Below, piece after piece: positions 1 to 20,977 of a DNA stretch of 64,000 nt. How positions within the stretch are numbered: the first letter of the stretch is position 1; each line of letters begins with the position of its first letter. The DNA comes from an uncultured Desulfospira sp. (GTDB lineage: Bacteria > Desulfobacterota > Desulfobacteria > Desulfobacterales > Desulfobacteraceae): NCBI GenBank assembly GCA_963663165.1, contig OY760175.1, forward strand, positions 1,984,001-2,048,000, given 5' to 3'. The translations under genes and the position numbers were made by a program. Under the pieces are notes generated by a model. The model was not told the DNA's origin, searched no databases, and was given only the letters and a program-made list of their open reading frames with translations.

Positions 1-253
1 CCTTAACGCACCCCATGGCAACGATAAATATAGCAAAAACGGCGGCATAGGCCACCCCGGTCACGGTAAGCCTGCCATGGGCCGCCGTATAGATGAAGCT
101 TGCCGCAAACAGCAGGGTCAGGCAATACCAGGACTGGATAAAAATAATCCCCACAGAGGCCAGAAGGCAGACCGCCATCCGGGTCCTGACATCAAGAGAT
201 CGGACAAAATTGCCGGGTTTCTCGGGCAGATCACTCCCGGATAATACCTGCAT
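1..253 (-). CDS. ECF transporter transmembrane T component, N-terminal part (runs off the window edge)
   Basis: Manual translation from ATG at 253: MQVLSGSDLPEKPGNFVRSLDVRTRMAVCLLASVGIIF... The LDVRTR matches the EcfT LDPRxK motif and is followed by hydrophobic helices. Overlaps the S-component stop. Not in the ORF track. Confidence 0.75.
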   Translation of the reverse strand, partial: MQVLSGSDLPEKPGNFVRSLDVRTRMAVCLLASVGIIFIQSWYCLTLLFAASFIYTAAHGRLTVTGVAYAAVFAIFIVAMGCVK

Positions 254-782
254 GGCGAAGCTCCTTTACAAAAAGAATGCCGGTTCCAAGTCCCATCAGA
301 CAGCCCACATACCCCAGGCCCACCACCACGGCAGCCATGATAAAAAAGCCAAGCTGCTCCCGGTACATCAAATAGGAATACCCAAGGGAAATCCCCCGAG
401 AGAGAAAATCAAACAATGCCACCCCGATGACCAGCACCACGGGGTGTTTAAATCTTCCCGTGGCTGCCATGGCAAGATCGCACAGGCAGCCGGCCAGGAT
501 CACCCCGATAATGGTCATGGGATTGCCGCCCATCAGAATCAGGGAGACCAGGCAGGAAATCAGGGAAAACAGGCTCAAGACCCCGAATTTTCTGACCTTG
601 TAAACCAGGATAATGAGCAGCGATGTGGCCACGGTATTTTTCATCACCAGGGTGACCGGATTCATGCCGCCGCCGGCCAGGGCGATCATCATGGTGGAAA
701 TCTTAATCAGGCCGGCAAAGGTGCCGATGGTGATCAGTTCTCCCGGGGTCCAGTAAGGATGTTTTCTTTTGGGATCAGTCAT
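231..782 (-). CDS. MptD-family putative ECF transporter S component
   Basis: 183 aa, about 5-6 TM helices, ELITIGTF N-terminal and KVRKFG motifs, ends ELRHAGII; sits next to EcfT. Confidence 0.75.
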   Translation of the reverse strand: MTDPKRKHPYWTPGELITIGTFAGLIKISTMMIALAGGGMNPVTLVMKNTVATSLLIILVYKVRKFGVLSLFSLISCLVSLILMGGNPMTIIGVILAGCLCDLAMAATGRFKHPVVLVIGVALFDFLSRGISLGYSYLMYREQLGFFIMAAVVVGLGYVGCLMGLGTGILFVKELRHAGIIRE

Positions 783-2246: not shown

Positions 2247-2266
2247 AAGTTTAATAGCTCAAACTT
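2247..2266. promoter_or_regulatory. Putative DtxR-family operator over the hutW promoter
   Basis: AAGTTTA-ATAGCT-CAAACTT. Minus-strand TTGACA at 2274-2279 with a TATTAA -10 at 17-bp spacing inside the palindrome. Confidence 0.6.
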
Positions 2267-3047: not shown

Positions 3048-3063
3048 AATAAAACTAAAAACA

Positions 3064-3083
3064 TAATTAGCAATGTCTAATTA
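3064..3083. promoter_or_regulatory. Putative DtxR/MntR-type operator
   Basis: Perfect-armed palindrome TAATTAG-CAATGT-CTAATTA just upstream of the 3047 start. Confidence 0.55.
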
Positions 3084-3245
3084 TTGACATGCCATGTAAT
3101 ATTTTGAATTTGCTGCGCTGTCAAGAAAAAATGGAACTATCTGTAGAAAGGCCCTGTCCTGCTCACCTGTCCAATCCCCTCAAGACAAGAAAGAAGCGTA
3201 TCGAATTTTTATGGGATTGGTGTTGGCATAAAAGGGGCGGCCTTT

Positions 3246-5162: not shown

Positions 5163-5990
5163 CTATTTTCTTGTTCGTCTCAACCCGGCCAGGCCCACAA
5201 GACCTGCGCCCAGCAAGAAAAAGGTGCCAGGCACGGGAACCGAACTTACTGCGGTTGTTGAAATATAAGGTGCAGTGGCACCCTCACGGTCAAAGCTTGC
5301 ATAAACGCTGCCGCACTCTGCCGCTGTGGCAAAAAGCTCCGTCGCATAGGCGTTGGCTAGTTCTTCGTCTTCTTGCAGACTGTCAAAAAACGCCTGGGTA
5401 AGTTCCGGTATCCAGCCGTCATATACATACCCGCTGGCAAGAACAATACCGTTGTTGCTGTCCGGATCAAGAACCCAGCTATTGTACAGATCGGTAATGT
5501 CTAAACTATAAGTGCCGTTGGCTGTCATGGTCAGGCTTGATATAGCGGATTGCGTCAGCAGGGTATTTTTAAGATCTACGACGTTGGCATCATCTCCGTA
5601 GGCTGTCAGTGTCTCCACATCAACATCACCGGGATCATAAACGTCCAGATATGCCGGCAGATCTGCAGTTGTAGCAGGCGGATTGCCGCCGGTCATTGAC
5701 CCTGTTCCTAAAAGGTCGATGACCAGATATGCCGATTCAACGGTCTCAGTTGCCAGAACATTAAATTTCACCCAGCTATAACCCCACATATCTTCGTCTC
5801 CGCCAAACACCTCAAGGGCTGACACTACAAAGTAATCCTTGGAGTCGTCCGGATAAGTAGTATAGGACCCCTGACCACTCATATAGGTGTACCCGGTCAT
5901 TATACTCTCGCCAATAACTTCGGCAGATGCGGTGCCGGTAAATATCATTCCAATCATTGCCAGTGCGATAAACATGTTTTTAAATTTCAT
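5163..5990 (-). CDS. PEP-CTERM (VPVPG) surface protein with the shared YxYM/GSM domain
   Basis: Signal peptide (..TASA), C-terminal VPVPGTFFLLGAGLVGLAGLRRTRK; paralog of 8182 and 11442. Start refined to MKFKN at 5990. Confidence 0.9.
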   Translation of the reverse strand: MKFKNMFIALAMIGMIFTGTASAEVIGESIMTGYTYMSGQGSYTTYPDDSKDYFVVSALEVFGGDEDMWGYSWVKFNVLATETVESAYLVIDLLGTGSMTGGNPPATTADLPAYLDVYDPGDVDVETLTAYGDDANVVDLKNTLLTQSAISSLTMTANGTYSLDITDLYNSWVLDPDSNNGIVLASGYVYDGWIPELTQAFFDSLQEDEELANAYATELFATAAECGSVYASFDREGATAPYISTTAVSSVPVPGTFFLLGAGLVGLAGLRRTRK

Positions 5991-6234
5991 TTTTCTTTTT
6001 CCTTTAATTCTTAATAGTTGCATGTCATTTTTCCTTAATTTTTCTTAATTCATTGTCTTTTTCTTATTGCCGTACTTCATTTTGAGTGAAAGCTTTAGAT
6101 ATCACCTCCTTTAAAAAAGCTGTTAGCTGTCAGCGCTTAGCCGTTAGCCGGCCGAAATGGCCTGCATGCTGAAGGCCGACAACTTTCATTATCCGGTTCG
6201 CCCATGGGAAGATGGGCAACACCGGCCATTTTTT

Positions 6235-7833
6235 TTAAGCCTCTTTTTCCCGATTCTCTTCCCGGGATCGGGTCACCATCCCGTAATAATCGATCAGGGC
6301 CTGGGCCAGGTTGACCTGCCAGAACTGCCCGGCCAGGGTCAGGCTGATCCATCCGTCTTTCATTTCAATTAACCCGGCCTGTTCCCACTGGGTCAGCAAG
6401 GGCCTGAACAATTCGGTGATATCGGGCCTGAACTGCCTTTCTAAGTTGGCAAGGTTCAGGTGGCCGGCCTCCAGCTCACCGGTGATCCGGTTGATCAGGG
6501 GTTTAAATTCGGGATAGGCCAGCATGGAGGCCACAGGCTTTACCCCGGATTCAATTGCTGCCGTATATTTGTCCAGGCGGCTTTCCAGATGGCCGGCATA
6601 CCCGCCTAAACTTCCCCCGGCACAGGAGCCGAACGCCAGACAGGGCGAGCCCTCTTTCATCAGCAGGTTGTAGATATTGCGCTCCCGGGTACCCCGGCAC
6701 CAGTGGGTCATGGAAAGCCTTCGAAACCGGGCCTGGTCCATAAGTTCCACCCCTCTTTTAAACATCCAGGCCTGTTCCGGGATATCGGCCGGATACGGCA
6801 GCTTCCCTTTTTCTGCAGCCAGGTCCAGGGGGCCGCCCGCAAAAATGTTCAACTGATAAAGATCTGCCCCGTCAATGTTCAGCTCAATAAGGGTCTTTAA
6901 ATCCTTTTCCCATACGGTCATGTTCTGGCCCGGCAGACCGTAGATCAGGTCAATGACAATGACGGCGGCATTGGTGTCCCGGGCCCGGGACAGGGTTTTG
7001 ACAACCGTATCCTGATCGCTTCTTCTCCCCAGGCTTTTCCGGATAGCCGTATCAAAACTTTGCACCCCGATGGAAAACCGGTTGGCCCCGCCTTCAAGGC
7101 AGGCCGCCAGTGTGGCCTCATCCAAATCGGCAATGGTGCTTTCCACGGTGATTTCGCAATCATTTGCCAGGGGCAACCGGTTTCGGATCTCTTTTAAAAG
7201 CCGTTCAAGGTCCCGGGGCTCCAGGGCCGTTGGGGTGCCCCCGCCCAGGTAGACCGCGTGGATGGGATAATCTGCCACGGCCGGCCGGGCCTGGTCCAAA
7301 CTCATCTCTTTGATCACCGCATCGGTATAGGACGGACTGGATATTTTGCTCAAAGGGTTGACAAAAAAGCCGCAGTACAGGCAATGGCCCCGGCAAAAGG
7401 GAATATGGAAATAGGCGGCCGAACTCTGGCTGCGGGGGGTGCCCATCAGCTCGTCCCATAAGTCATTAATCTTTGATTTTTCCACGGGCTCTCCGCCCAT
7501 GCCGGCATGCACGGTGGTTTTCCTTGAAAAGGCATGGGTTAAGGGGTCCACCCCTTCCCTGGCAAAAAAATCCCGTTCGTCTTCCCGGGCCAGGCTTGAG
7601 GACTGCCTGTCCAGTTGGCCTTTATTTTGTCCGGTCTTTAGCGGGGCCTTGAAATGGTCCCGGTTCCCGGCACCCATCATGGAGGCCTTGGCCCGTTTCA
7701 GATAGGTTAAATCAATGATGTTCCGGTTTTCCGAACGGGCCCGGGACTCAATCCCTTTTTTAACCGTTCTCCGGATAAATCCCGGAACCTGTTCAAAATA
7801 CTCCTGGGCATCACTTGTCCATTGCATGGTCAT
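6235..7833 (-). CDS. hutW: Second HutW/ChuW-like radical SAM enzyme with an N-terminal PCP_red-like helical domain
   Basis: YFHIPFCRGHCLYCGF, AVYLGGGTPT, ANDCEITVE. The N-terminus WTSDAQEYFEQVPGFIRRTVKKGIESRA resembles the BchB/ChlB C-terminal PCP_red domain. Confidence 0.85.
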   Translation of the reverse strand: MTMQWTSDAQEYFEQVPGFIRRTVKKGIESRARSENRNIIDLTYLKRAKASMMGAGNRDHFKAPLKTGQNKGQLDRQSSSLAREDERDFFAREGVDPLTHAFSRKTTVHAGMGGEPVEKSKINDLWDELMGTPRSQSSAAYFHIPFCRGHCLYCGFFVNPLSKISSPSYTDAVIKEMSLDQARPAVADYPIHAVYLGGGTPTALEPRDLERLLKEIRNRLPLANDCEITVESTIADLDEATLAACLEGGANRFSIGVQSFDTAIRKSLGRRSDQDTVVKTLSRARDTNAAVIVIDLIYGLPGQNMTVWEKDLKTLIELNIDGADLYQLNIFAGGPLDLAAEKGKLPYPADIPEQAWMFKRGVELMDQARFRRLSMTHWCRGTRERNIYNLLMKEGSPCLAFGSCAGGSLGGYAGHLESRLDKYTAAIESGVKPVASMLAYPEFKPLINRITGELEAGHLNLANLERQFRPDITELFRPLLTQWEQAGLIEMKDGWISLTLAGQFWQVNLAQALIDYYGMVTRSREENREKEA

Positions 7834-7942
7834 TGTTTCCTCATGTTGTTGGTAGCTGTTAGCTATTAGCCGTTAGCTGTTAGCGGTTAGCCGGCTGCCA
7901 TTTCCTTCAGCTAACAGCTAACGGCTAAACGCTAATAGCTTT

Positions 7943-7983
7943 AAAAAAACAGCCGGGTTCCCTGTTTGAGGCAACCCGGCTGT
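7943..7983 (-). terminator. Intrinsic terminator acting as riboswitch expression platform
   Basis: ACAGCCGGGTT...AACCCGGCTGT followed by a U-run; the left arm is the aptamer 3' strand. Confidence 0.75.
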
Positions 7984-8045
7984 CCTGTAAGGATCCGCGG
8001 CTTTCCGTCCCCCGGTTTCCCGGGGTTTGGCTTTTTCGGTTTGTG
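7965..8045 (-). ncRNA. Cyclic-di-GMP-I (GEMM-I) riboswitch
   Basis: Minus strand AAAGCCAAACCCCGG-GAAA-CCGGGGGACGGAAAGCCGCGGATCCTTACAGGACAGCCGGGTTGCC: GNRA-capped P2, GACG-GAAAG core, AGCCGGGTTGCC 3' end. Confidence 0.85.
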
Positions 8046-8181
8046 GGGACTTGGGATATGGGACCTGGGATTTGGGGTTGATTTACGCTTCTATTTCTAA
8101 GGTCTCAGGTCTGAAGTCTAAATCCATCTCCACCGGTTAGACTTTGATTATCTCATTTTGTCCCATTCTTGTTTCCGGTTT

Positions 8182-8979
8182 TTAGTGTCTTGCCCGTCTC
8201 AATCCCGCAAGCCCCGCAAGGCCACATCCGAGCAGCATCAGGGTACCGGGAACTGGAACTGTTGATGAAATATACGGCGCGCTGCCGTTTTCGTTGCCAA
8301 AACTGGCATAAACGCTGCCGCTTTCTGAAGCGATGAGAAGCATCTCTGTTAACAGGGCGTTGTATTCTTCATCGGTAAGACTGTCTATATACTCCTGGGT
8401 AATATCTTTTATATAGCCTTCATAGTTATACCCGCTGGCAAGAATGATACCGTTGTTGCTGTCAGGATCAAGAATCCAGCTGTTGTACAGATCGGTAATG
8501 TCTAAGTAATAGGTGCCGTTGGATGTCATGGTCAGGCTTGACAGAGCGGTTTGCGTCAACAGGGTATCCCTGAGAGCTGAAACGGTGTCTTTATCCAATG
8601 TTTCCACATCAACATCGCCGGGATCATAAAGGTCCAAAGAGGCAACAAGCTCTTCGGTTGTTGCCTCGGGATTGCCGAAGCTCATAGCACCTACACCCAA
8701 AAGGTCGAGAACCAGATATGCCGATTCAACAGTCTCGGTCTCAGTCACTTCAAATTTCAGCCAGCTATAGCCCCACATATCGCTGTCCCCGCCAAACAGT
8801 TCAAGGGCGGTTGCCACAAAGTAATCTTTGGAGGATTCCGGATACGTCGTTGTGGCACCCAGGCCACCCATATAGGTGTACCCGGTTAATTCACACGTAC
8901 CAATAACTTCGGCGGATGCGGTGCCGGTAATTACCATTGAAAATAAAGCCAGTGCCATGAGAATTCTTTTAATATTCAT
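8182..8979 (-). CDS. PEP-CTERM surface protein with the shared YxYM/GAM domain
   Basis: Signal peptide; TGYTYMGG, DMWGY, GVGAM, DITDLYNSW...NNGIIL; tail VPVPGTLMLLGCGLAGLAGLRRARH. Confidence 0.9.
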   Translation of the reverse strand: MNIKRILMALALFSMVITGTASAEVIGTCELTGYTYMGGLGATTTYPESSKDYFVATALELFGGDSDMWGYSWLKFEVTETETVESAYLVLDLLGVGAMSFGNPEATTEELVASLDLYDPGDVDVETLDKDTVSALRDTLLTQTALSSLTMTSNGTYYLDITDLYNSWILDPDSNNGIILASGYNYEGYIKDITQEYIDSLTDEEYNALLTEMLLIASESGSVYASFGNENGSAPYISSTVPVPGTLMLLGCGLAGLAGLRRARH

Positions 8980-9242
8980 TTTGATTTATCCTTTTTGATT
9001 TATCCTTTTTGATTTAAATAAAACGTTTTTCTATTTTGGTCTTGAAACAGGCTGAGCTTAAAAGGGTCAGGAATTCACTGACAATGAGTAAAAGGCATGT
9101 ATGACCTCCTTTCTTTCTTATATTCCACAAACATGGGAAGATGCTTTAAAATCGGTTGTTTTTTGTTTTCACACATAGATATGGGTAGGATGGATCAGGG
9201 TCCGGGCCTCTCCTTGACCCATGGTTCCCCCCCCTTGTTGTC

Positions 9243-9905
9243 CTATTTTCTTGACCGTCTCAGCCCCGCAAGCCCCACTAACCCGCTGCCCAGCAACCAT
9301 ACCGCGCCGGGGACGGGCACAGCGCTCGGTACGGTCAGGGTAAGTGAACCCAAGGATGTTCCTTCCGCGTTACCGGACCACCCCTCGCCCGAAACGTACT
9401 GAGCGCCTTGACGAAGAACAATGCTATATTTGTACACAGTACCTGTGTCCAGGGTCCACTCTCCGGTGGACGCATATAGACCTATAGAACTGCTATAATC
9501 GCCAACCGCATCCATTGATTTAAACAAATATTCGGAGGTCCATAAGTTTTTCTCTTTATCCTCATCGTAATAACCAAGGCGGATCGACTGATAGCAGGAA
9601 GAATACAAGGTATCGAGATATTCATCAGCAAGCGTGGCCTCGGAGAAAAGAGAGTAGCCTACGGTTACGGCGCCCTCTGACTCGCCCTCTTCTGCCTCTA
9701 TCGTGAACACGATTGAAACTGAGCCCTTGATGGCTCCATCATTCAAATCACCGCTGAAAACATAGGTTCCGGAGCCCTGATCCGAAAAATCGAAGCTCAC
9801 TGTTTCATCTGCGGTAGTAATTTCTGAAATGACAATCGTATAGGCAAAGGATTGCATGGGTATCAACAGACAAACAACAACAGCGAACATCAGTAACTTT
9901 TTCAT
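9243..9905 (-). CDS. PEP-CTERM surface protein, acidic beta-rich domain
   Basis: Signal peptide (QSFA); tail VPVPGAVWLLGSGLVGLAGLRRSRK. Confidence 0.9.
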   Translation of the reverse strand: MKKLLMFAVVVCLLIPMQSFAYTIVISEITTADETVSFDFSDQGSGTYVFSGDLNDGAIKGSVSIVFTIEAEEGESEGAVTVGYSLFSEATLADEYLDTLYSSCYQSIRLGYYDEDKEKNLWTSEYLFKSMDAVGDYSSSIGLYASTGEWTLDTGTVYKYSIVLRQGAQYVSGEGWSGNAEGTSLGSLTLTVPSAVPVPGAVWLLGSGLVGLAGLRRSRK

Positions 9906-9986
9906 GGCTTTCTCCATTTTTAAATTAAATAAAAATAACTACTAAAGGGGGGGGGGCATGACTCATGGTTTGCCCCCTTCTTGTTT

Positions 9987-10718
9987 CTATTTTCTTGCAC
10001 GTCTTAAGCCCACAAGCCCCACAAGGCCGCTGCCCAAAAGCAGCCGTAGGTCGGGTAGAGGGGCGAAACCCGACGTTGGGTTTCGCTCCCGCTCTACCCA
10101 ACCTATACCTGTTTGTACTATTCTTGTTTCCAGTTTATAGTTTCTTGCACGTCTTAAACCCGCAAGCCCCGCAAGGCCTGCGCCCAGCAGCAGCATGGTG
10201 CCGGGTACAGGAACCGGATTATTCCCCACGGCAACCATGGCGGACACATTGTACCCACCCTCACTGACTGTACCTGTGGTAGTGTAATCAAGACCGTAAT
10301 CGCCGCCGTTGGCGGACTCAGCATTGACACTGATGTTGGTTGACCCTTCACTAAGAATGGTAAAGTAAAGGGTGGCCAGCAGGATATTGTCCCCGGTCAC
10401 GCCCTGAGTGGACGTGCCGCCCACAAAATATGCCTGGTAGTAGCCCAGGTTGCTGAACTCTGTTTTATAGAGGGAGTAGCCGAAATATTTGTATATGGCC
10501 TCATCTTCGACAGCCACATCAAAGCCAAAAGAGGTCAGAGAAAAATCGGCCAGGCCTTCTGAATACAGCCAGACATTCACCTCAAAAACCGTACCGGTAT
10601 AGCCGGTATAGCCGGTCTCAACAAGGGTTATATCCGGGGAAGCCTGGGCCGTGCCAAGGCTTAAAAACGCCAGCAACAGCAGTGTCATTGCCGGTATTGT
10701 TTTTTTCATTTGTTCCAT
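9987..10718 (-). CDS. PEP-CTERM protein with a cohesin-like domain, reading through into a second orphan sorting tail
   Basis: VFEVNVW..FGFDV..NILLATLYFT; VPVPGTMLLLGAGLAGLAGLRRAR, then a REP-derived linker and a second LLLGSGLVGLVGLRRARK. Confidence 0.8.
   Translation of the reverse strand: MEQMKKTIPAMTLLLLAFLSLGTAQASPDITLVETGYTGYTGTVFEVNVWLYSEGLADFSLTSFGFDVAVEDEAIYKYFGYSLYKTEFSNLGYYQAYFVGGTSTQGVTGDNILLATLYFTILSEGSTNISVNAESANGGDYGLDYTTTGTVSEGGYNVSAMVAVGNNPVPVPGTMLLLGAGLAGLAGLRRARNYKLETRIVQTGIGWVERERNPTSGFAPLPDLRLLLGSGLVGLVGLRRARK
10046..10108. repeat. Inverted GTAG-type REP doublet (REPIN-like)
   Basis: GTAGGTCGGGTAGAGGGGCGAAACCCGAC abutting an inverted near-copy GTTGGGTTTCGCTCCCGCTCTACCCAACCTATAC. 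Confidence 0.7.
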
Positions 10719-10836
10719 CTCCTTTTGTTAGCCGCCCGGAACAGACGGGCCTTAAATTTTCACCAGATAAGAAAGAGGGTAAAGATAAGGGATCAAGAAG
10801 TCTCTTCCTGACTCATGATTTTCCCCCTTCTTGTTT

Positions 10837-11361
10837 CTATTTCATTTCACGTCTTAAGCCCGCAAGCCCAGCAAGGCCTACACCCAGCAGCAGAATGGTG
10901 CCGGGAACAGGCACGGCAGAGGCAGCATCGGTTGCGGTCAGGCGAACCTGAATTTCCGCATAATCGTTTGACACAATCATGCCGCCAAGATAATACTCGG
11001 TGCCGGTGTCCACAGTGTATTCCCCGTCGCCCGAAATCACATTATTTTGGGATAAAAGCAATGCCCCAGCGGCCATAGTGCCTGAGCCTGTTGTCTCGGT
11101 AACACTGTACGCCAGGGTCACGCTATCCGACTCGCCACCCTCAGCTACGATGGTGATATTGCCATAAGTTGCGCCCATGGCACCACCGGTACCCGTATCA
11201 CCTGTACGAATGGTAAAAACATAATCGTCGCCGTCTTGTTCCCACGAATAGCTGTCCAAGACTTGACTCTGGTACGTGAGGGAAAAATCGATCATATAAG
11301 CAAACGATTGCACCGGGAACAGCAGGCAAGCTGTAACAGCCAGTATCAATAACTTTTTCAT
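10837..11361 (-). CDS. PEP-CTERM surface protein
   Basis: Start refined to MKKLLIL (GGAGG SD upstream); signal peptide QSFA; tail VPVPGTILLLGVGLAGLAGLRREMK. Confidence 0.9.
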   Translation of the reverse strand: MKKLLILAVTACLLFPVQSFAYMIDFSLTYQSQVLDSYSWEQDGDDYVFTIRTGDTGTGGAMGATYGNITIVAEGGESDSVTLAYSVTETTGSGTMAAGALLLSQNNVISGDGEYTVDTGTEYYLGGMIVSNDYAEIQVRLTATDAASAVPVPGTILLLGVGLAGLAGLRREMK

Positions 11362-11441
11362 AATTTCCTCCGTTTTTTGATTTCTTATTAAATTTAATAA
11401 ATGGGTTATAAGGTTGTCTGAACGAGTAACGCCCTTTTCAT

Positions 11442-12302
11442 CTATCGGTTTCTTGCCCGGCGCAACCCTGCAAGGCCGACAAGACCGAAACATAGCAGGC
11501 AGAAGGCTCCGGGAACCGGCACCGCACTTGTCACCACAGTTGTTGAAATATAAGGCGCATTGGCACCATCACGGTCAAAGCTGGCATAAACGCTGCCGGA
11601 CAAAGCAGCTGTGTCTAATATCTCTTGCACATAGGCGTGATACTCTTCATAGGTTAAACTGTTAATCCATTCATTAGTAACATTCTCCGGTATCCAGCCA
11701 TCATAGACATACCCGCTGGCAAGAACGATACCGTTGTTGCTGTCCGGATCAAGAACCCAGCTATTGTACAGTTCGGTAATGTCTATGCTATAGGTACCAC
11801 TGGCTGTCATGGTCAGGCTTGAGACAGGGGTTTCATCCAATAGGGCATCCTTAAGCGCCTCGACCTGAGCCGCTGCTTCACTGCTCCCATAACCGTCCTC
11901 TCCGTAGACTGTAAGACCCTCCACATCAACATCACCGGGATCATAAACGTCCAGATATGCCGGAAGATCAGTAGTTGTGGCAGGAGGATTGCCGCCGGTC
12001 ATTGAACCTGTTCCCAAAAGGTCGATGACCAGATATGCCGATTCAACGGTCTCGGTTGCCAAAACATCAAATTTCACCCAGGCATAGCCCCACAAATCGG
12101 CATCGCCGTCTGCGCCAAACACTTCAAGGGCCGACACTACAAAATAATCCTTGGCGTCTTCCGGATAAGTTGTAACGGACCCCTGACCGTTCATATAGGT
12201 GTACCCGGTCATAATGGCCTCGCCGATAACCTCGGCAGATGCGGTGCCGGTAATTAACAGCCCGATCATTGCCAGCGCGATACAAATACGTTTAAACTTC
12301 AT
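11442..12302 (-). CDS. PEP-CTERM surface protein with the shared YxYM/GSM domain
   Basis: Close paralog of 5163-5990, with long identical stretches; tail VPVPGAFCLLCFGLVGLAGLRRARNR. Confidence 0.9.
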   Translation of the reverse strand: MKFKRICIALAMIGLLITGTASAEVIGEAIMTGYTYMNGQGSVTTYPEDAKDYFVVSALEVFGADGDADLWGYAWVKFDVLATETVESAYLVIDLLGTGSMTGGNPPATTTDLPAYLDVYDPGDVDVEGLTVYGEDGYGSSEAAAQVEALKDALLDETPVSSLTMTASGTYSIDITELYNSWVLDPDSNNGIVLASGYVYDGWIPENVTNEWINSLTYEEYHAYVQEILDTAALSGSVYASFDRDGANAPYISTTVVTSAVPVPGAFCLLCFGLVGLAGLRRARNR

Positions 12303-12329
12303 TTTTCATTCCTTATCGTATAAAAATCG

Positions 12330-13082
12330 TTAATTGATTTTAGTTATTTTTCTGCGCCGCAGACCGGCCAAAGCCGCAAGACCCGAGCCCAGCAGCAGAA
12401 CCGCCCCTGGAATCGGTACGGAAGAGACTGAAACTTGTCCGTTGCGAAGGGCTATAGCACCGACACCGGAGACACCGTCCTTGGTGTAGCAGCCCTGGCC
12501 GCCGGTGGGCATCCTAAAGAGAAAGGCACTATCGGAATCATAAATTGCAGCCTCCGTCCCTGTCCAGTACCACCCATAGCTATCTAAATTTTCAAAATCT
12601 CCTGTTTCGTTCAGCCCGTATTCGCCTCTGGAAAGACGATTACCTGAGGTATCCTGCAATCCCAGGTTGCCCAGTTCCTCATAAAAGAGATGGCCCAACT
12701 CGGAAGTGATGATATTATACCCTAACGTGGTGGTACCATCATATCCGGATTTCAGGGTGCCATCCACAGTGGTTGGCAGCCGCCAGGACGACCCACCCCA
12801 GTCCACGGTATATCCATCATAAAGGATAATGGTCAAAACACCTTCTTCATTCAGGCTTGATGCCCAGGCAACCTGGTCGTCCCAGGTTGAAGCATCATTA
12901 TCATAATCCAGCCACACCACTGAATTGCCATTGTTGTCATCATCCCAGATAAGCTTGTACTCTGATCCGTTGTAAGTAGCCGTGCCGATAGTGGTCAAAG
13001 CGGCGTAGGCCGAAGGAGCAAATCCCAGAGCGACGGCCAGCAGGGCCATGGTGAATGCCATCATAATTTTTCTTAATTTCAT
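12330..13082 (-). CDS. PEP-CTERM surface protein with a DUF1566/Lcl-like domain
   Basis: WRLPT and SELGHLFYEELG motifs, WYWTGT; tail VPIPGAVLLLGSGLAALAGLRRRK. Confidence 0.85.
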   Translation of the reverse strand: MKLRKIMMAFTMALLAVALGFAPSAYAALTTIGTATYNGSEYKLIWDDDNNGNSVVWLDYDNDASTWDDQVAWASSLNEEGVLTIILYDGYTVDWGGSSWRLPTTVDGTLKSGYDGTTTLGYNIITSELGHLFYEELGNLGLQDTSGNRLSRGEYGLNETGDFENLDSYGWYWTGTEAAIYDSDSAFLFRMPTGGQGCYTKDGVSGVGAIALRNGQVSVSSVPIPGAVLLLGSGLAALAGLRRRKITKIN

Positions 13083-13426
13083 TGGTTCTTCCTTTTTTGT
13101 TTATTTAATTTTTCTTAAAATCTTTTAAAACACTACCGGTTATAGGATTTCAGCCATTAGCGGTTAGATTTTCCTGCCGGCTGCCGACAGGACATGGCTA
13201 TCCTTATGAAAGGCTGGGAGTGATGGGCCCAAGGCTTTAAGAAAGCCAGCCGGTTATCTTCAGCACTTTCAAAATTTTTCGCGCCCGGCTGTGGGCATGA
13301 CGGTTATATTGAAATGAATAATTGATTGTGATATTTACATTGAGTGAGTGAAGGTTGAGGTATCACCTCCTTTCATACCCGGTCCGCTGCATGGGAAGAT
13401 GCGCGGGCCGGGTTCATTTGGGTTCA

Positions 13427-13464
13427 GCCGCAGGGCACCGGATTTAGGGCCGGTGCCCTGCGGC
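13427..13464. other. 15-bp perfect GC-rich intergenic stem-loop without a U-tract
   Basis: GCCGCAGGGCACCGG-N8-CCGGTGCCCTGCGGC. Confidence 0.7.
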
Positions 13465-13563
13465 AAGGCCAGCGGCGGTCCCGGGGCCGGAAACTCATGT
13501 TTTACTGGTGGCACAGGCAAACAAAGTATCCGGTTCCTGGGGCAGCCCGCCGGCAGGAAGGGG

Positions 13564-14328
13564 TTAACTTCTGCGGCGCAGGCCCACCAGGCCCACCAGG
13601 CCGCATCCGAGCAGCATCATGGTGCCGGGAACGGGAACGGCGCTGGTGGTTTCAATATAAAGAGCCGTGGTGCCGTTAAGGCTGTTACCGGTTTTGCCTA
13701 CACCAGTGAGGCCTGAGAAAACAGCACCGACAGCGCCCACTGCACCGCTGGCTTCATTTGAATTGGGGCTGGCACATACCAGGACAAGACCATTGTTTTC
13801 GATCTCGCCTGAAACCCAGGCATTGTAAATATCTGTAATGTCGATGCCCCAAACGCCGTTTGAGGTCATGGTGGCGGTAGTCAGCAGAGAGGTCGTTCCG
13901 GTACTGGAGTCTGCCAGATCCGCATAAAGAGTTGAAATGGTTGAAGAGGTAAGGTCTGCCACATCCGTGTCACCCGGTGAATAGATATCCAGAACTGCCG
14001 GATAATCTACCGTGGCATCAGTATAGTTCATGCTGCCCACAGCCAGCAGTTCCAGATACAGAACCGCACTGTCCACGGTTTCAGTACCAATATCGCTGAA
14101 TTTAATGGTGGCATAGCCCCACATATTTGTACCGGCGTATTCATATTCCAGGGGACCGGCGATAAAATAATTATCTTCCGAAGTTTGGAATTGCCCTCCC
14201 ATATATGCATAGGAGGTAGAGCTTGCACTGTAAGTATCAGCCAGAGCCGTACCGGCAAAAGCAAATACACTGAACATCAGTGCAATGGCCAATACAATGG
14301 CATTCTTTCTTAATTTCATTTTTCTCAT
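13564..14328 (-). CDS. PEP-CTERM surface protein with the shared YxYM/GSM domain
   Basis: YAYMGG, NMWGY, AVGSM, IDITDIYNAWV..NNGLVL; tail VPVPGTMMLLGCGLVGLVGLRRRS. Confidence 0.9.
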   Translation of the reverse strand: MRKMKLRKNAIVLAIALMFSVFAFAGTALADTYSASSTSYAYMGGQFQTSEDNYFIAGPLEYEYAGTNMWGYATIKFSDIGTETVDSAVLYLELLAVGSMNYTDATVDYPAVLDIYSPGDTDVADLTSSTISTLYADLADSSTGTTSLLTTATMTSNGVWGIDITDIYNAWVSGEIENNGLVLVCASPNSNEASGAVGAVGAVFSGLTGVGKTGNSLNGTTALYIETTSAVPVPGTMMLLGCGLVGLVGLRRRS

Positions 14329-14511
14329 TCCTTTCTTGTTGTAAAATTTAAATAAATAGGATTAATTGGTTTGTTGAAAAAAAAGCTGATTTTCCTTTTA
14401 ACGAATAACCTCAAAAAGTATCACCCCCTTTCGGTTTGTTAGCTGTTAGCTTTTAGCTGTTGCTGTGAGCCATGAGCTATGAGCTGTCAGCAGCTAAGGG
14501 CCTCTTACGGT

Positions 14512-17500
14512 TTAACGGAACAGGCTGTTGATAAAACAGCCGCCGCCCACGCTCTCATCCGGGGTGCTTGCCGTCGCTTCAACTGCGGTGCCGCTCACGG
14601 TCCCGTACACTGAGCAATGATCAGTGGTAAAGGTCACGGTCTGATTTGCCTCATCCACCGAGACGATATTATCCAGGTAGATCTCTTCAATGTCGGCATC
14701 CTCGTCCCCTGAGAAAAAGGTTTCCAGGTCAGGGGCATGGACAATTCTCCAGGACCCCAGGGTGAAGGGGTCATCGGATCCGGCCGCACTGGCGTCATAG
14801 GAGATGGTGATCTCAATCTCCAGAATGTCGGCATCATCCAGAGGCTCCCCGTTTTCATCGTAAAGCTCAAATAAAAACAGGCCGGTGGCACCCCCGGGAC
14901 TTGTGCTGCCGGTGTCCACCACCATCACATAGATCTTTCCGACTGTGGTTGAGACACTGTTGGCCGTAATGGTGATGGTAACGGGGTCCCCTGAAATCGT
15001 ATCAAAATAGATCTCTTTGGAGCCGGTCAGGCCGGCAGGATCATCAATGGCGGTGATCAGCATTTTGGCGCCGTCTTCTCCGGCGGTCCCGCCGATCTGG
15101 GTTGAGTCGTCGCCTTGGGCCATTTCAATACAGACAAAGCTGCCGAAACCGCCCAACTGCTCTAAGGCATCCGTGCAGATGCCGGTGAGCCGCTCTTTTT
15201 CTTCATCCGTGGTACCGGCCGGCAGGTAAAGGGGGGCCTGAGACGTGCCGGACTCCTCTCCGATACCAATATAGATCCGGTCATCTTCGCTGCCGCAGGT
15301 TACGGTGATGCTGCAAAGCCCGTAGTCATCCGGTGCCGTAAAGGTGACCGTGCTGCCGGTAGTGGCGGACAGGGCCGAAGCTGACACATCAGTGCCGTCA
15401 GGCCCCTCAACTGTCCACTGGTAAGTGCCGGAACCGCCCGAAGCCGTCAGGCTTCTGGTCTCGCCCGGGAGCATGGCCGCCGTGGCATTGACCTGGTCAG
15501 TGATGCGCAGTTTGTCCGTATCATATGTGACCAGCAGGTAAGGAGGATCATCGGCATCCTCCCTTGCCACCAGGTGCCAGCTGTATCCGTCGCCGTAATC
15601 AGCACCGTAAATATCGGTTGAACCGGTCCAGGACTGATCGTCATGGTCTTTGAGTTCCAGGCCGTTGTTCTCCCACTGGCCGTTCAGCCATCCCTTTACG
15701 ATGGGGGCCACATCAACTTTTCCCGTGGAGTAGGAGCCTGTGGTGTGGGTCACCAGGACACTGGGGGCTTCGGGCACATACCAGGGTTTGTTGGTCATAT
15801 CCACATACCCGTCACCGGTCACGGCTTCGGTCCAGTAAAAGTCATCTACGGTATCTCCGGTTTTCTCCTGTGTGTCGGTGGAAAGGGCGTATATAGTACC
15901 GTACATGGCCGTACCGTCCGGGGCCGGGGGCCCCACATCCATCTCACCGGCACTGTAGTCGTCCATGGTGTAAACCAGATATGCGGCTTCAATATCTTCC
16001 GTGGTCAGCCCAAGATCGGTTATGGGGCTTAAGTCAAACCGCATAAGAATCCGGGCATCCACAATGTAAACCGCCCCGGCCTTGAGCTTGTATTCCCCCA
16101 TGGAGGTCCCCTGGGGATACCCCTTGCCGTTGCCCATGCCCCCATACAGCACATAGGTGTCTTCGGACACCTCACAGCGAACCGTGCTGGCCACGAGGGT
16201 GGTGAAACTCCAGGTCACGGCAGATCCTAAGGTGTTGCCGGCAAGATCGGCGGCAGTGGCCGCTATGGTAACGGTATATGAGGTTTGCTCTTCAAACACC
16301 ATATCAGGGATAAAGACCAGAACGCTTTTCCCTTCCCAGGAGAGGCTGCCGTCCACTGCCGGGCTAAGGGTAAACCCGTTCTCAACGGTCTCCTTGTCCA
16401 TGTCTTCACTGAAGGTAACCGTTATCGTATCGGTAACAGCCGCCTCAGCCCCGTCTTCAGGGCTGACAGACAGCACCGTGGGGGGACACTGGATATTCCA
16501 GGTGATATTTTCCAGATCAGACCAGACCCCCAAACTGTCCTGCACCTGGATTTTCAGGGTATGGTCCCCGTCGGTCAGGCTGCTCAGTTCCAGGGTGTCG
16601 GAAGGATCACAGGCATCGCTCCAGTCTCCGTCGTCAAGGCAATACCGATAGGCATACACCCCGGTTCCTGATATGGTCAGGCTTATGGTATCTTTTACAA
16701 TGGCGGTATCAGGGGTTCCTTCAACTTCAGGGTCAGGGGCCACATAGGCCCCGGTGGTGAAGCTGAACGTGTACTCGTTTTCCAGGCTTTTTTCTGCGGC
16801 ACTTTGGGCCCCCGTGCCCATGGTCACGGTATAGGCGGTCTCATGGGTTAACAGATCTGTCGGCGTAAAGGTTACGGCCGTTTCAAGGTCATTCCAGGAA
16901 AAAGTCCCGGTTACCGCAGTCTCGGTACTTGAGCTTAAGACCATGGAAAAGGCCTGTTCCACACTTTCGGTGGCCATGGGCTTGTCAAAGCCAATGGTAA
17001 CCGATGTTCCCACATCAATACCGGTAGCGCTTGCTTCCGGAGTTGTGGTATCGACTGTGGGGGCTGATTCAGGGGCAGAAAACGTAATGTAGGGCATGGT
17101 CCCCAAGGTCCCGTTAAGGCCGGCATATTTGGTTCCCACAGGACCCAGGTTAGAGGCATTGGATGCCCCTGAATTTTCACTGTCGCTCATTAAAACAAGG
17201 CCGTTATTGGCCTGATCGCCCCGCACCCAGGCATTATAGATGTCTGTGATGTCGATGGCATAAGTCCCGTTGGCCGTCATGGTGAAGTCCGAAACAATAG
17301 GGGAAGAGGAGGCCTTAAGGGTTGTGTGCAGGGTGGCAGCGTCGGAAACCGTGGCAAGTGAGGCCACATCCGTATCACCGGGGCTGTATATATCCAGTTT
17401 TCCGGGATACGTTTCACTGGCGTCCTCAAGGTACATGCTGCCCACTTTCAAAAGATCAACGACCAGATAAGCACTTTGTACCTCCTCGGTTCCAATGGTG

Positions 17501-17721
17501 TCAAACTTGATAAAGGCAAACCCCCACATATCGGTCCCGTTGAACATATATGTCATGGGACCTGCGATAAAATAGCTTTGTTCGGAGATATTAAAACCTG
17601 TTCCGCCCATATAGGCATACCCGGTCAGGGTACATGGGTAATCGGCAGATGCGGTATGGGAACAAAACAGGTTCCCGGTCACCAGCACTGCTAAAATTGT
17701 TATGATTCTGATTAACTTCAT
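14512..17721 (-). CDS. Large acidic surface protein: YxYM/GSM domain, SbsA/Big_5 Ig-like repeats, DNRLRE-like domain, GGGCFI C-terminal tail
   Basis: Signal peptide; N-domain homologous to 13564; two PTV..P..GA..V...ITVTFSE.M Ig repeats; DTYV...RILMRFDLS...NNGLEL; ends GGGCFINSLFR. Confidence 0.85.
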   Translation of the reverse strand: MKLIRIITILAVLVTGNLFCSHTASADYPCTLTGYAYMGGTGFNISEQSYFIAGPMTYMFNGTDMWGFAFIKFDTIGTEEVQSAYLVVDLLKVGSMYLEDASETYPGKLDIYSPGDTDVASLATVSDAATLHTTLKASSSPIVSDFTMTANGTYAIDITDIYNAWVRGDQANNGLVLMSDSENSGASNASNLGPVGTKYAGLNGTLGTMPYITFSAPESAPTVDTTTPEASATGIDVGTSVTIGFDKPMATESVEQAFSMVLSSSTETAVTGTFSWNDLETAVTFTPTDLLTHETAYTVTMGTGAQSAAEKSLENEYTFSFTTGAYVAPDPEVEGTPDTAIVKDTISLTISGTGVYAYRYCLDDGDWSDACDPSDTLELSSLTDGDHTLKIQVQDSLGVWSDLENITWNIQCPPTVLSVSPEDGAEAAVTDTITVTFSEDMDKETVENGFTLSPAVDGSLSWEGKSVLVFIPDMVFEEQTSYTVTIAATAADLAGNTLGSAVTWSFTTLVASTVRCEVSEDTYVLYGGMGNGKGYPQGTSMGEYKLKAGAVYIVDARILMRFDLSPITDLGLTTEDIEAAYLVYTMDDYSAGEMDVGPPAPDGTAMYGTIYALSTDTQEKTGDTVDDFYWTEAVTGDGYVDMTNKPWYVPEAPSVLVTHTTGSYSTGKVDVAPIVKGWLNGQWENNGLELKDHDDQSWTGSTDIYGADYGDGYSWHLVAREDADDPPYLLVTYDTDKLRITDQVNATAAMLPGETRSLTASGGSGTYQWTVEGPDGTDVSASALSATTGSTVTFTAPDDYGLCSITVTCGSEDDRIYIGIGEESGTSQAPLYLPAGTTDEEKERLTGICTDALEQLGGFGSFVCIEMAQGDDSTQIGGTAGEDGAKMLITAIDDPAGLTGSKEIYFDTISGDPVTITITANSVSTTVGKIYVMVVDTGSTSPGGATGLFLFELYDENGEPLDDADILEIEITISYDASAAGSDDPFTLGSWRIVHAPDLETFFSGDEDADIEEIYLDNIVSVDEANQTVTFTTDHCSVYGTVSGTAVEATASTPDESVGGGCFINSLFR

Positions 17722-17739: not shown

Positions 17740-19863
17740 TTATAATGCGATCCTCAAACCAGCGTAAAAATAGGCGCCCAGAGGAGAATCGAGCATGCTT
17801 TCCCTGTGGCCGCCCTCATAATCGGCCACATCCACGGGCGGTTCTTCATCAAATATGTTCCGTCCGCCCGCGAATACGCTAACAGACGGGGTCAGGGCAT
17901 AGGTGATCTGGGCATTGAAAAAATCAAAGTACTCGATTTTCAGAGCCGGAGATGTATCGCTTAAGTATTTGCCCCGATAGACATAGCGCAGGTTGGCGGT
18001 CAGCTTGTCCTTATACCGGTAGCTTAAGGTGGCGTGTATCTGGGACCGGGGGCGGTTGGTCAGGTCCTTGCCGTCCGGGTCTGTTGCCTCAAGATAATTG
18101 GCGGTTACATCCAGGTCAAACCCCCATGGAAGGGGCAGGCCTATACCGAGTTCCGCGCCTTTAAAAGTGGATGTCCCTTCCAGATTGATATAGGTGGTCT
18201 CGGTATTGGTATTGGATGTGCCTTCCGTGATGATTTCGGTTTCAATCATATTATCAATGTCGTTGCGGTACATATCAACCGTCAGTTGAAGACCGGCGGG
18301 ACCGAAAGGGGTCCAGACCGCCCCCACATTAAAATTGACCCCTTCCGAAGGCTCAAGGTCGGGATTTCCGTAGATATCGTTCCAGCCCATGGCACCAATG
18401 AAATTGTCATGAAGCTGATAAAGGGTCGGGGCCTGGAAAGAGCTTGAAGCAGAGGCCCGGAACGCCAGGTTCTCAGACCATTCGTACCGGGCGGAAATTT
18501 TGGGGGCCAGGTTGGTTCCGAAATCGGAATATTCCTCCACACGTCCGGACAAGGTCACGGTCAGCCGGGTGAAAAGTGTTATGCGGGTTTCACCAAACAG
18601 GGCGTATACATTCCGTTCCTCGACAAAGTCCCGGTATGGGGCATCCACATTTTCCCGGTTAAAGCCGGCCCCCAGGAAAAACGTTAACCAGGGCTTATAA
18701 TCCCAGTTCATATGGGCGTAAATATCCTGGGTATCGGACGTCAGATCGCCGTTATAATCCGGATCTTCGCTCTGGCGGTACTCGGTATCGGACAGGCCGA
18801 GTCCTAAGCCGGATTTAACCCGGAACGTATTAAACTCCCCTTCCCAGGTCAGCCCGCCGTAATAATCTTCCTTTTTGCTCTCACGGTCCTTGTTCAAATC
18901 ACCGGTTACCCCGACGCGCATCACTGAGTCTGTCAGGTTATACCGCAGTTCACCATCCAGGGTCTGGGTGGGGCTGATGTCATAAGATCCGTTGATGTTG
19001 GCCCCGGACTGTTCCACTTCCGGGGATGTCCAGCGCGGGTTGTCCGGGGTGCGGTCATAATGCTGGCTTTCCCGGCTGTTTGCACTGATATTGACAAATC
19101 CTTTTTCACCCACAGCAAACCCGGTGGAAACTTCACCTTTCTTTTCTTCACCATCCCCATGGATGGAACCGCCGGACTGAATGCTGGCGGTAAAAGGCCG
19201 GTTATACTTGCGCAATACAATATTAATTACACCGGCCACAGCGTCAGCTCCGTATTGGGCGGATGCACCGTCCCGGAGAACTTCGATACGCTCAATGTCG
19301 CTGATGTTGATGCCGCTGATATCAGTAAAGGCGAATCCGTCCTTATCCGGCCGGGTGCCGGGCTGGCGACGGCCGTTGATAAGGACCAGCACATGGTTGG
19401 CGTCCATACCCCGCATGCGAAGGGTCTGGACGCCGGGGGTGGCATTCATGTCCGGGCACTGGACCAGTTCAACCCCCTGAAGCACCTCTATGGCCTGGTT
19501 TAAGGAAACCGCACCGATCTCCTGTAAATCTTCGCTGGTGACAATCTGGACCGGCACGGCCATTTTTTCAGGGGTTTCAGTGCCGGTACGGGACCCGGTG
19601 ACCACAACGGTTTCCATCTGGTAAACCGAACTGCCTTTTTGCTGCAGGCCGGATACATCCTGTTGTACAATATCTGAAGCATTTTCTTCCGACAGGGCCG
19701 GTACCTGCCCATGCACCTTTATCGAAGACCATTCCTCTGCGGGGGCATCAGAAAATCTCAGGCATAAAAAAAGGATGGCTGCCATTGCCGAAAGCCTCGA
19801 TATGCCCCCCCCCGGGATGCACAAACAGCTGCCCTGCCTGCCCGTTTTTTCAAACCAATTCAA
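17740..19863 (-). CDS. TonB-dependent outer-membrane receptor (heme/cobalamin-like class)
   Basis: TonB box ETVVVTG, plug IERIEVLRDGASAQYGADAVAGVINI, FQAP...GNPDLEP motifs with His and Met between them, C-terminal beta strand YAGLRIAL. Confidence 0.92.
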   Translation of the reverse strand: MNWFEKTGRQGSCLCIPGGGISRLSAMAAILFLCLRFSDAPAEEWSSIKVHGQVPALSEENASDIVQQDVSGLQQKGSSVYQMETVVVTGSRTGTETPEKMAVPVQIVTSEDLQEIGAVSLNQAIEVLQGVELVQCPDMNATPGVQTLRMRGMDANHVLVLINGRRQPGTRPDKDGFAFTDISGINISDIERIEVLRDGASAQYGADAVAGVINIVLRKYNRPFTASIQSGGSIHGDGEEKKGEVSTGFAVGEKGFVNISANSRESQHYDRTPDNPRWTSPEVEQSGANINGSYDISPTQTLDGELRYNLTDSVMRVGVTGDLNKDRESKKEDYYGGLTWEGEFNTFRVKSGLGLGLSDTEYRQSEDPDYNGDLTSDTQDIYAHMNWDYKPWLTFFLGAGFNRENVDAPYRDFVEERNVYALFGETRITLFTRLTVTLSGRVEEYSDFGTNLAPKISARYEWSENLAFRASASSSFQAPTLYQLHDNFIGAMGWNDIYGNPDLEPSEGVNFNVGAVWTPFGPAGLQLTVDMYRNDIDNMIETEIITEGTSNTNTETTYINLEGTSTFKGAELGIGLPLPWGFDLDVTANYLEATDPDGKDLTNRPRSQIHATLSYRYKDKLTANLRYVYRGKYLSDTSPALKIEYFDFFNAQITYALTPSVSVFAGGRNIFDEEPPVDVADYEGGHRESMLDSPLGAYFYAGLRIAL

Positions 19864-20024: not shown

Positions 20025-20044
20025 AAGTTCGTATGTTCGAACTT
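20025..20044. promoter_or_regulatory. Putative DtxR-family operator in the receptor/dtxR divergent promoter
   Basis: AAGTTCG-TATGTT-CGAACTT. Minus-strand TTGACA at 20063-20068 with its -10 region overlapping the palindrome. Confidence 0.7.
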
Positions 20045-20378: not shown

Positions 20379-20852
20379 ATGAAGAATCAATACCCGCCGT
20401 TAACCCCTACTCAGGAAGACTACCTGGCCGCTATTTTCAGACTGGCCCAAAAAACCGGCGAGGCCCGTTCTAATGCCATTGCGAACACGCTGGGGGTATC
20501 AAAATCCACTGTACCGGCAGCCCTCAAATCCCTGGCCGCCAGAGAACTGATCGTCTACGAGCCCTACAGCCCCATCCGCCTGACACCCAAAGGCTATGAA
20601 ACCGGCAAACGGATTGCCCACAGAAACTTTATCCTCAACGAATTTTTTGTAAAAGTCCTTCAACTGCCTGAACAGGAGGCCAGAAACACCGCCTGCCGGG
20701 TGGAGCATGCCGTCAGCGACGACACAGTCCTTGACCTGGGCCGTTTCATTTTCTTCCTGAAAGAATCCCGGGTTGATCTGACAAACTGGAAAGAAAAATA
20801 CAAGATCCCCAAAGACCATGCATTTGAACTCAACCCTTTTTCTGATCTTTAA
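20379..20852 (+). CDS. DtxR/MntR-family metal-dependent transcriptional repressor (no FeoA domain)
   Basis: LTPTQEDYLAAIF, HTH LGVSKSTV, IRLTPKG, ACRVEHAVS metal site. Confidence 0.92.
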   Translation: MKNQYPPLTPTQEDYLAAIFRLAQKTGEARSNAIANTLGVSKSTVPAALKSLAARELIVYEPYSPIRLTPKGYETGKRIAHRNFILNEFFVKVLQLPEQEARNTACRVEHAVSDDTVLDLGRFIFFLKESRVDLTNWKEKYKIPKDHAFELNPFSDL

Positions 20853-20957: not shown

Positions 20958-20977
20958 AAATTCGATAGCTCAAACTT
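20958..20977. promoter_or_regulatory. Putative DtxR-family operator upstream of the 21093 gene
   Basis: AAATTCG-ATAGCT-CAAACTT; 17 of 20 positions match the site at 2247-2266. Confidence 0.55.

Follow-up and report, generated by a model that had tools for sequence, protein, structure and literature searches.

We analyzed a stretch of 64,000 nucleotides from an uncultured Desulfospira sp. (GCA_963663165.1, contig OY760175.1, positions 1,984,001 to 2,048,000), referred to as the window; coordinates given without a locus name are positions in it. Every gene from 19863 down to 231 is located on the minus strand. This block encodes six copies of a domain of about 200 residues with two candidate ligand methionines, here called the Met domain, interspersed with genes related to heme utilization. 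We consider it probable, at roughly 0.62, that the proteins carrying this domain are an exported, surface-anchored bis-Met hemophore-like family, encoded in heme-scavenging clusters and built on a repurposed CBM96/DNRLRE β-sandwich.

Four of the copies are found in small proteins encoded at 13564..14328 (domain 13639-14238; Met43, Met100), 11442..12302 (domain 11523-12233; Met37, Met101), 8182..8979 (domain 8260-8910; Met37, Met99) and 5163..6023 (domain 5241-5921; Met48, Met110). The other two belong to an exported protein of 1069 aa (14512..17721), which is arranged as signal peptide, Met domain copy 1 (17080..17643; Met38, Met96), Big_5/Y_Y_Y immunoglobulin (Ig) stalk, a divergent Met domain copy 2 (15502..16191; residues 511-740), further domains and a GGGCFI C-terminus. 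A preliminary description of this DNA had reported minus-strand open reading frames (ORFs) at 5163, 8182, 11442, 13564 and 14512 with five shared motifs; the ORF coordinates confirmed all of them and the five motifs were present in 5/5 proteins. Pairwise identity among these five domains was 38-79%. A five-copy profile matched only these five in the 6.74-Mb genome (E 1e-72 to 1e-116; next ORF E 0.37), and the likeness is far above chance. The second copy of the 1069-aa protein was absent from that earlier list. It matched the domain with an hhalign probability of 98.8 (E 4.5e-17), and its Met529 and Met594 were aligned in register with the two Met of the other copies.

The copies at 5163, 8182 and 11442 were nearest to one another, could be aligned at the DNA level over most of their length and had an acidic helical insert in common. 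All six lie in proteins with an exported appearance: the start of each small protein looked by eye like a signal peptide, and its tail consisted of VPVP, a hydrophobic stretch and basic residues. The PEP-CTERM family (PF07589) scored above its cut-off for 5163 and 13564 and below it for 8182 (19.9, just below) and 11442 (15.9), with tails alike by sequence, and three exosortase matches over cut-off were detected in the host genome. Judged by these tails, the four small Met-domain proteins are PEP-CTERM-type. Four further PEP-CTERM-type proteins without a Met domain are interspersed among them on the same strand (12330-13082, 10837-11493, 9987-10718 and 9243-9917). In the ORF 9987-10718, the PEP-CTERM tail is followed in frame by the remnant of a second one, and this double tail suggests recombination between tails in the array.

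Homologs were divided into a core of 71 non-identical sequences, with at least 120 bits on a domain-only profile, and a distant tier of 15 rows with 45-120 bits. Met1 (the Met of YxxMGG) was kept in 68/69 covered core rows and Met2 (the Met of GxM) in 70/71, so that the two Met singled out in the preliminary description are indeed the conserved pair of the family. This did not extend to Met3 (the Met of TMT), which was invariant in the five window copies and in all rows of a 45-row alignment, yet was found in 59/71 core rows; the Met of MWG was found in 42/69. The sequence-weighted frequencies were 0.985 for Met1, 0.926 for Met2, 0.673 for Met3 and 0.491 for the Met of MWG. We considered a three-Met (copper-type) site but dropped it, since Met3 is Ile, Val or another residue in 12/71 core rows. 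In the distant tier, Met1 was present in 12/12 and Met2 in 7/11 covered rows. There was no conserved His column among the 71 core rows (highest 14/71). The claim that the four small paralogs have no His held for three of them, while the 11442 protein carries His222 in its helical insert. All core domains were acidic, with net charges of -5 to -28; those of the window contain 2-6 Lys/Arg against 20-39 Asp/Glu each, and three to four Met per copy.

In a tree of 54 rows, 23 Met1 rows formed one branch (support 96/94), and none of nine canonical WxE-type DNRLRE relatives carried either Met. His takes the place of Met2 in the sister sequences P0082 and P0091; both are DNRLRE-type PEP-CTERM proteins with a YHF motif near Met1. 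The DNRLRE family NF033679 (cut-off 34 bits) gave 23.9-30.1 bits for the small copies and 36.4 bits for the 1069-aa protein over two stretches only. As far as sequence comparison goes, the Met domain appears to be a divergent branch of the DNRLRE superfamily. The Met-domain family is rare. A word search returned 44 proteins at E <= 1e-5, including four from the window itself, plus one long protein, and a scan of 1.84 billion representatives returned 28 clusters at E <= 1e-30 and 73 at E <= 1e-10; a weak tail (767 hits, E <= 0.001) swollen by the PEP-CTERM part of the profile was excluded from the family. The domain was carried by 2/161 genomes in the family of the host and 1/301 in its order. 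The second family carrier, G408, belongs to the genus of the host and coincides with locus L006, and the remaining carriers with taxonomic names were Planctomycetota.

The AlphaFold2 model of the 13564 copy, based on a 45-row alignment, reached a predicted local distance difference test score (pLDDT) of 93.3 and a predicted template modeling score (pTM) of 0.90. Met1 (residue 13) and Met2 (residue 70) were placed in loops just past the predicted strands 7-12 and 57-67, respectively. The best match in a structure search with this model was the chondroitin-binding 8WAB (Z 14.1, root mean square deviation 3.1, 166 aligned residues, 14% identity), followed by the alginate-binding CBM96 structure 7VBO (Z 12.7, deviation 3.1, 160 aligned, 15% identity) and a third match at Z 10.1; Foldseek gave E 3.6e-5 for a CBM96-like fold. 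The model and these matches bear out the DNRLRE-like β-sandwich scaffold proposed earlier. No known hemophore structure was among the structure-search matches listed, a listing that does not exclude such a likeness; likewise, the top matches being CBM96-like, the comparison with the HmuY fold leaves families outside the listed matches open. PDB sequence searches with queries A2 and A3 gave nothing significant, and in a viral fold search all matches were to tail and structural proteins of CBM96-like type.

The groove of 7VBO and its alginate-binding residues are described in PMC9971899. The window domains were placed on the 7VBO sequence by a hand register over three anchors (DxYV, KF and AxL) at about 15% identity. 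In this register Met1 falls at about Asn9/Lys10 and Met2 at about Ser66, while Lys10 is replaced by Gly, Lys27 by Gly or Gln and Arg36 by Gly (invariant in the 45-row alignment); the basic CBM96 groove (Lys10, Lys22, Lys25, Lys27, Lys31, Arg36, Tyr159) was not retained. From this hand placement we infer that Met1 and Met2 would lie on opposite walls of the former CBM96 groove. Taken together, the replacement of Lys10, Lys27 and Arg36 and the position of the two Met suggest a groove that has exchanged its sugar-binding charges for one Met on each wall. The KFD, SAxL and DITxxxNxW..NNG anchors are common to the window domain and CBM96/DNRLRE proteins, as are the predicted fold and the weak NF033679 scores; however, the window domain has PGDxDV and a helix in place of the WxExxxTW motif, and it differs further in its two conserved Met, its heme-gene context and the lack of a carbohydrate-active partner. 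PF24517 (CBM96) did not match the five window proteins at E <= 0.05, and it was passed by several distant relatives, such as P0069, P0072 and P0076. A match to a characterised carbohydrate-binding module, which the preliminary description had named as evidence against heme binding, was thus found at the level of fold (8WAB and 7VBO, 14-15% identity) but not in Pfam CBM96 or in the basic groove residues.

Two genes in the window encode ChuW/HutW, an anaerobic heme-degrading radical S-adenosylmethionine methyltransferase (TIGR04107, cut-off 400 bits). ChuW1 (6235..7833) scored 510.9 bits and ChuW2 (779..2164) 520.6 bits, both on the minus strand. ChuW1 carries an N-terminal PCP_red domain (protochlorophyllide reductase C-terminal; PF08369), an arrangement also observed at L004:14252-15763 and L006:4801-6438, and the ChuW-like enzymes of L008 and L009 are fusions with an energy-coupling factor (ECF) S component. 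An MptD-like ECF transporter S component (PF09605) is encoded at 231..782 on the minus strand, and at or past the left edge (G000:C1:1980954-1984253) follow ECF T and ATPase subunits, an HmuF/FldH-like flavodoxin and a PNPOx-fold protein. The flavodoxin of L006, 94% identical to that of the host, had heme-bound FldH (8G64) as its sole PDB match; FldH is a paralog of HmuF, which feeds heme to HmuW (PMC10404700). Genes at 2304-4853 break the cluster before chuW2; they encode an AAA-ATPase/PD-(D/E)XK protein and an exported protein without annotation.

The first gene of the cluster encodes a TonB-dependent receptor (17740..19863, minus strand; Pfam Plug and barrel), which ends 18 bases from the gene of the 1069-aa protein. 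Heme receptors possess a conserved His along with the motifs FRAP and NPNL (PMC6449446), and the corresponding loop of the window receptor reads FQAP..H..AM..NPDL. Among 37 aligned homologs, His411 was found in 33, Met418 in 35 and His612 in all 37. Receptors adjoining the Met domain in L006, L032 and L033 were 60-73% identical to that of the window. From the 19 genomes of the host's family that have ChuW without the domain, five were examined; they contained no Met domain, and the four receptors read were 24-29% identical to the window receptor. This difference in identity suggests that the surface array and this receptor subfamily are inherited or transferred together.

A DtxR/MntR-family metal-dependent repressor (20379..20852, plus strand; PF01325, PF02742) is encoded divergently from the receptor. 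The intervening region contains the palindrome AAGTTYG-N6-CRAACTT (20025..20044), a candidate operator and the only exact match in the genome. Copies with one mismatch are located just upstream of chuW2 (2247..2266) and downstream of the repressor (20958..20977). Allowing one mismatch, five were found in the genome against 3.9 expected, three of them inside this 19 kb. Exact copies lie beside the repressor at the same position in L003 and L006, although the pattern was partly derived from these two loci and the window. It is not family-wide, because it was absent at up to two mismatches from 14/17 core loci and was found in L004 only at two mismatches. Our literature search found no paper naming this palindrome. 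A sigma-70 promoter scan was near chance (28 vs 22.3 +/- 4.6). Upstream of chuW1, a cyclic di-GMP (c-di-GMP)-I (GGC) riboswitch was detected (7966..8040, minus strand; Rfam RF03167, 65.7 bits, gathering 59). Beyond the repressor, a HEAT-repeat membrane protein and an Rce1-like intramembrane protease are encoded (21093-23224); the pair also occurs in L033 and is possibly the sorting enzyme of the 1069-aa protein, the GGGCFI end of which lies at 14512-14540. A tRNA gene follows at 27076-27148 on the minus strand, and the genes from 27715 on resemble, by eye, an rnf-type electron-transport cluster.

The context of the domain was compared over the 14 distinct core loci that span 5 kb or more, after dropping L001, L031, L036 and L037 (shorter than 5 kb) and L035 (a duplicate of L002). 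Loci with only a weak DNRLRE-type match served as controls, of which L020, L039 and L045 were scanned with Pfam and the others by tblastn with 17 marker queries. A heme-specific marker (ChuW, ChaN, HemP or HmuS) was detected in 10/14 core loci vs 1/18 controls (Fisher p 1.4e-4, a value overstated because related kin were counted and the markers were drawn from the core loci). The single positive control, L039, had a heme oxygenase by Pfam, and among control loci of any length 0/25 matched any of the 17 queries by tblastn. ChuW or a ChuW-like enzyme was encoded in the window, L004 and L006 (over cut-off) and in L008 and L009 (305 and 298 bits, below it), ChaN in L007-L010, HemP in L003, L004, L005, L007, L008, L009 and L011, and ECF sets in L004, L006, L008, L009 and L032; DtxR-family repressors were found in 7/14 core loci. 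The CobN-like protein of L010 had HmuS as its best solved match (9d26, 1217 bits, vs 366 for ChlH), and its gene is preceded by MotA/ExbB and DUF2149 genes in a cluster headed by the Met domain. HmuS is a heme de-chelatase (PMC12583661).

A less biased test than these locus counts was offered by the 351 genomes of the class of G454, which we take to be Phycisphaerae. Seven carried the domain and eight a ChuW-like gene; six carried both, within about 4 kb of each other in five of the six, and the seventh domain carrier was the HmuS locus. Three of these loci, in G579, G767 and G777, were new contexts, and both Met were kept in them. Gene context is the strongest evidence for a heme role. The preliminary description had not cited this line of evidence, which bears out the heme-uptake role proposed there.

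Several other genes were observed at these loci. CbiX-like chelatase-fold genes adjoin the domain at L001:905-1888, L002:3046-4131, L003:8764-9804 and L011:10685-11584, with signal-peptide-like starts in the two that were read; their products are possible periplasmic de-chelatases in loci without ChuW. A papain-like protease with PD40 repeats (L006:12382-15528, L032:12542-15694, L034:11761-14907) could free heme from proteins. Prepilin-type N_methyl/DUF1559 genes occur in the planctomycete loci L003-L005 and L007-L011, and PepSY-TM genes in L003 and L011. Met-less distant relatives adjoin an ORF with ATP-binding cassette (ABC) and heme oxygenase domains in L039 (553-2880, 6025-6744) and an imelysin gene in L045 (1672-2556, 6141-6860), which hints that the iron-linked use of this fold may be wider than the Met family.

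The Met domain is therefore an exported, acidic, Met-paired β-sandwich tied to heme-utilization genes in two phyla, Desulfobacterota and Planctomycetota. Its proteins share with the hemophores the trait of being exported and encoded with heme uptake or utilization genes. Heme binding with both Met as axial ligands, a preference for ferrous heme and delivery to the receptor would be the corresponding functions. In the mechanism we propose, low iron would lift DtxR-family repression at the palindromes. Exosortase would anchor the small copies, and the 1069-aa protein would hold two copies outward on its Ig stalk. Met1 and Met2 on opposite groove walls would then ligate ferrous heme, which would pass to the TonB-dependent receptor where one is encoded and then to the ECF transporter. 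Iron would finally be released by ChuW with the HmuF-like flavodoxin, or by HmuS in one planctomycete. Iron is the likely gain, because the host genome encodes the heme synthase AhbD (over cut-off) and the host probably makes its own heme. Precedents for the ligation exist: Met-Met HmuY proteins bind heme best when reduced (PMC12106395), and the Shr and Shp NEAT domains ligate heme by two Met (PMC12796733).

A number of observations weigh against this interpretation. The only solved relatives of the fold are glycan-binding modules, and the register of the two Met rests on a hand alignment across about 15% identity. The core homolog P0059 lacks both Met. The best NCBIfam and PDB matches of the receptor were B12 and siderophore/colicin receptors, all far below cut-off and indicating no ligand, and none of the ten planctomycete loci (L001-L005, L007-L011) showed a TonB-dependent receptor. 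The c-di-GMP riboswitches in the window and L032 suggest biofilm-linked control. Besides the overstated Fisher p, four of the 14 core loci (L002, L032, L033, L034) had no heme-specific marker in the DNA examined, L034 having proteases and FeoB instead, and three of the six ChuW-like genes overlapping with the domain scored 294-335 bits, under the cut-off of 400. In the family of the host, ChuW was present in 21/161 genomes and the domain in 2/161; the domain is therefore not needed for ChuW systems.

Another metallo-tetrapyrrole (siroheme, F430, corrinoid) or a metal-free porphyrin might be bound instead of heme b, with the ligands split among the paralogs. The signal-peptide-bearing CbiX-like proteins in L001, L002, L003 and L011, the B12 receptor as best, weak NCBIfam match of the receptor (163.6 bits, cut-off 599.7), the PCP_red domain on ChuW1 and the six variable domain copies all fit this idea. 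However, ChuW, HmuS and HmuF/FldH are heme b proteins (PMC6449446 for ChuW, PMC12583661 for HmuS, PMC10404700 for HmuF), as are ChaN and HemP by Pfam name, and neither the window nor seven loci yielded a cobalamin riboswitch. Because the neighboring enzymes are heme b proteins, heme b is the favored ligand and another tetrapyrrole is unlikely. The differing tetrapyrrole preferences among paralogs suggested in the preliminary description found nothing in their favor.

It is equally improbable that the Met bind soft metals as free ions (Fe2+, Cu+, Ag+, Co2+), which would make the protein a surface trap or buffer co-regulated with heme uptake. Met-only sites suit Cu(I), each window domain has three to four Met and is strongly acidic, and genes for FeoB and a P-type ATPase are located near L034. 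Against this, conservation across the family is limited to two Met, Pfam scans of the loci gave no copper chaperone or efflux family besides the P-type ATPase near L034, which is unassigned, and the genes with which the domain co-occurs are heme-specific.

We judge it slightly less probable still that these are glycan-binding or biofilm-matrix PEP-CTERM proteins like their CBM96 cousins, simply located beside iron genes and with structural Met. The chondroitin- and alginate-binding modules as nearest structures, the CBM96 clusters given by Atlas features at 0.95-0.96, the c-di-GMP riboswitches and the four unrelated PEP-CTERM proteins within the array are in line with such a role. Yet the window proteins have no CBM96 Pfam match, the basic groove is lost and the net charge negative, no carbohydrate-active domain is attached, the control DNRLRE loci were without heme markers by tblastn (0/25), and the Met are placed in loops just after predicted strands.

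Heme capture without an intramolecular bis-Met clamp, by one Met and a ligand of a partner, by a two-chain site or by docking on foreign hemoproteins opened by co-encoded proteases, would accommodate the papain-like and subtilase proteases of L006, L032 and L034, the absent or shifted Met2 of some distant members and the receptor's own conserved Met418 and His612. It is likewise doubtful, since core homologs almost never lack either Met and the divergent copy 2 of the 1069-aa protein retains the pair.

The bis-Met hemophore-like interpretation can be compared with known systems. The HmuY proteins with Met-Met ligation (Tfo/HmuY-Tf, PinO, Bvu) resemble the Met domain in the proposed Met pair for ferrous heme in anaerobes (PMC12106395) and in multiple paralogs per genome. 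The L010 domain sits with HmuS, MotA/ExbB and DUF2149 genes where Bacteroidota have hmuY. In contrast, the window proteins had no HmuY match in Pfam and NCBIfam scans (E <= 0.05), and their nearest structures were CBM96-like. HmuY is anchored as a lipoprotein, whereas the anchor here is PEP-CTERM and the hosts are Desulfobacterota and Planctomycetota. Shr and Shp of Streptococcus pyogenes show the two-Met axial ligation proposed here and place a pair of heme domains within a single long surface protein (PMC12796733), comparable to the two Met domains of the 1069-aa protein; the window proteins, however, have no NEAT Pfam match, another anchor, and diderm hosts with a TonB-dependent receptor. 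The Fusobacterium hmu and Escherichia coli chu loci (HmuW/ChuW, HmuF/FldH) have in common with the window a ChuW over cut-off, an HmuF/FldH-like flavodoxin and an outer-membrane receptor. The window departs from them with ECF-type import genes in place of classic ABC ones, a DtxR-family regulator, a second copy of ChuW and a PEP-CTERM surface-protein array.

A second unannotated surface domain ("GGMG") was observed at L004:8925-9737, L006:10673-11491 and 6546-7175, L032:6555-7184 and 10731-11699, L033:4125-4757 and 6519-7139, and L034:10561-11583. Its GM was invariant in 9/9 rows and a second Met was present in 8/9, and the Big_5 stalk protein of L006 and L032 carries it N-terminally in place of the Met domain. 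The model was weak (pLDDT 66.6, Met loops below 50), and no match was found in Pfam, in the Atlas or with Foldseek at E <= 0.001. The "GGMG" domain is a candidate second two-Met heme binder. Divergent DNRLRE-type domains at L008:2100-3632, L009:10669-12165, L010:10661-12187, L006:11530-12198 and L032:11745-12419 also carry a first-loop Met (YTPMS, CAMG, SAMGG).

Our literature search, mostly at abstract level and thin on subscription papers, found no prior description of a heme-binding DNRLRE or PEP-CTERM domain. The novelty would lie in a hemophore-like protein on a new scaffold and anchor. Sequence profiles set it apart from HmuY, NEAT and CBM96, and its groove chemistry separates it from CBM96 as well, although the CBM96 fold is shared. 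There is about an even chance that a broader statement applies, namely a new hemophore class of bis-Met ferrous-heme catchers derived from a carbohydrate-binding fold, arrayed by PEP-CTERM/exosortase and Ig stalks and accompanied by a dedicated TonB receptor subfamily with a Met loop and by the "GGMG" domain as a second two-Met surface family of unrelated origin.

In the literature surveyed, hemophores come almost all from host-associated microbes and have few folds (HasA, HmuY, NEAT, HphA, CR). The present family points to heme scavenging by environmental bacteria, with a sugar-binding scaffold turned to heme capture, and proposes a specific role for one class of PEP-CTERM proteins and DNRLRE domains, groups in which most members lack a function. 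If this is true, PEP-CTERM proteins would gain a defined small-molecule ligand, and free-living sulfate reducers and planctomycetes would harvest heme iron from the cytochromes of neighbors or dead cells.

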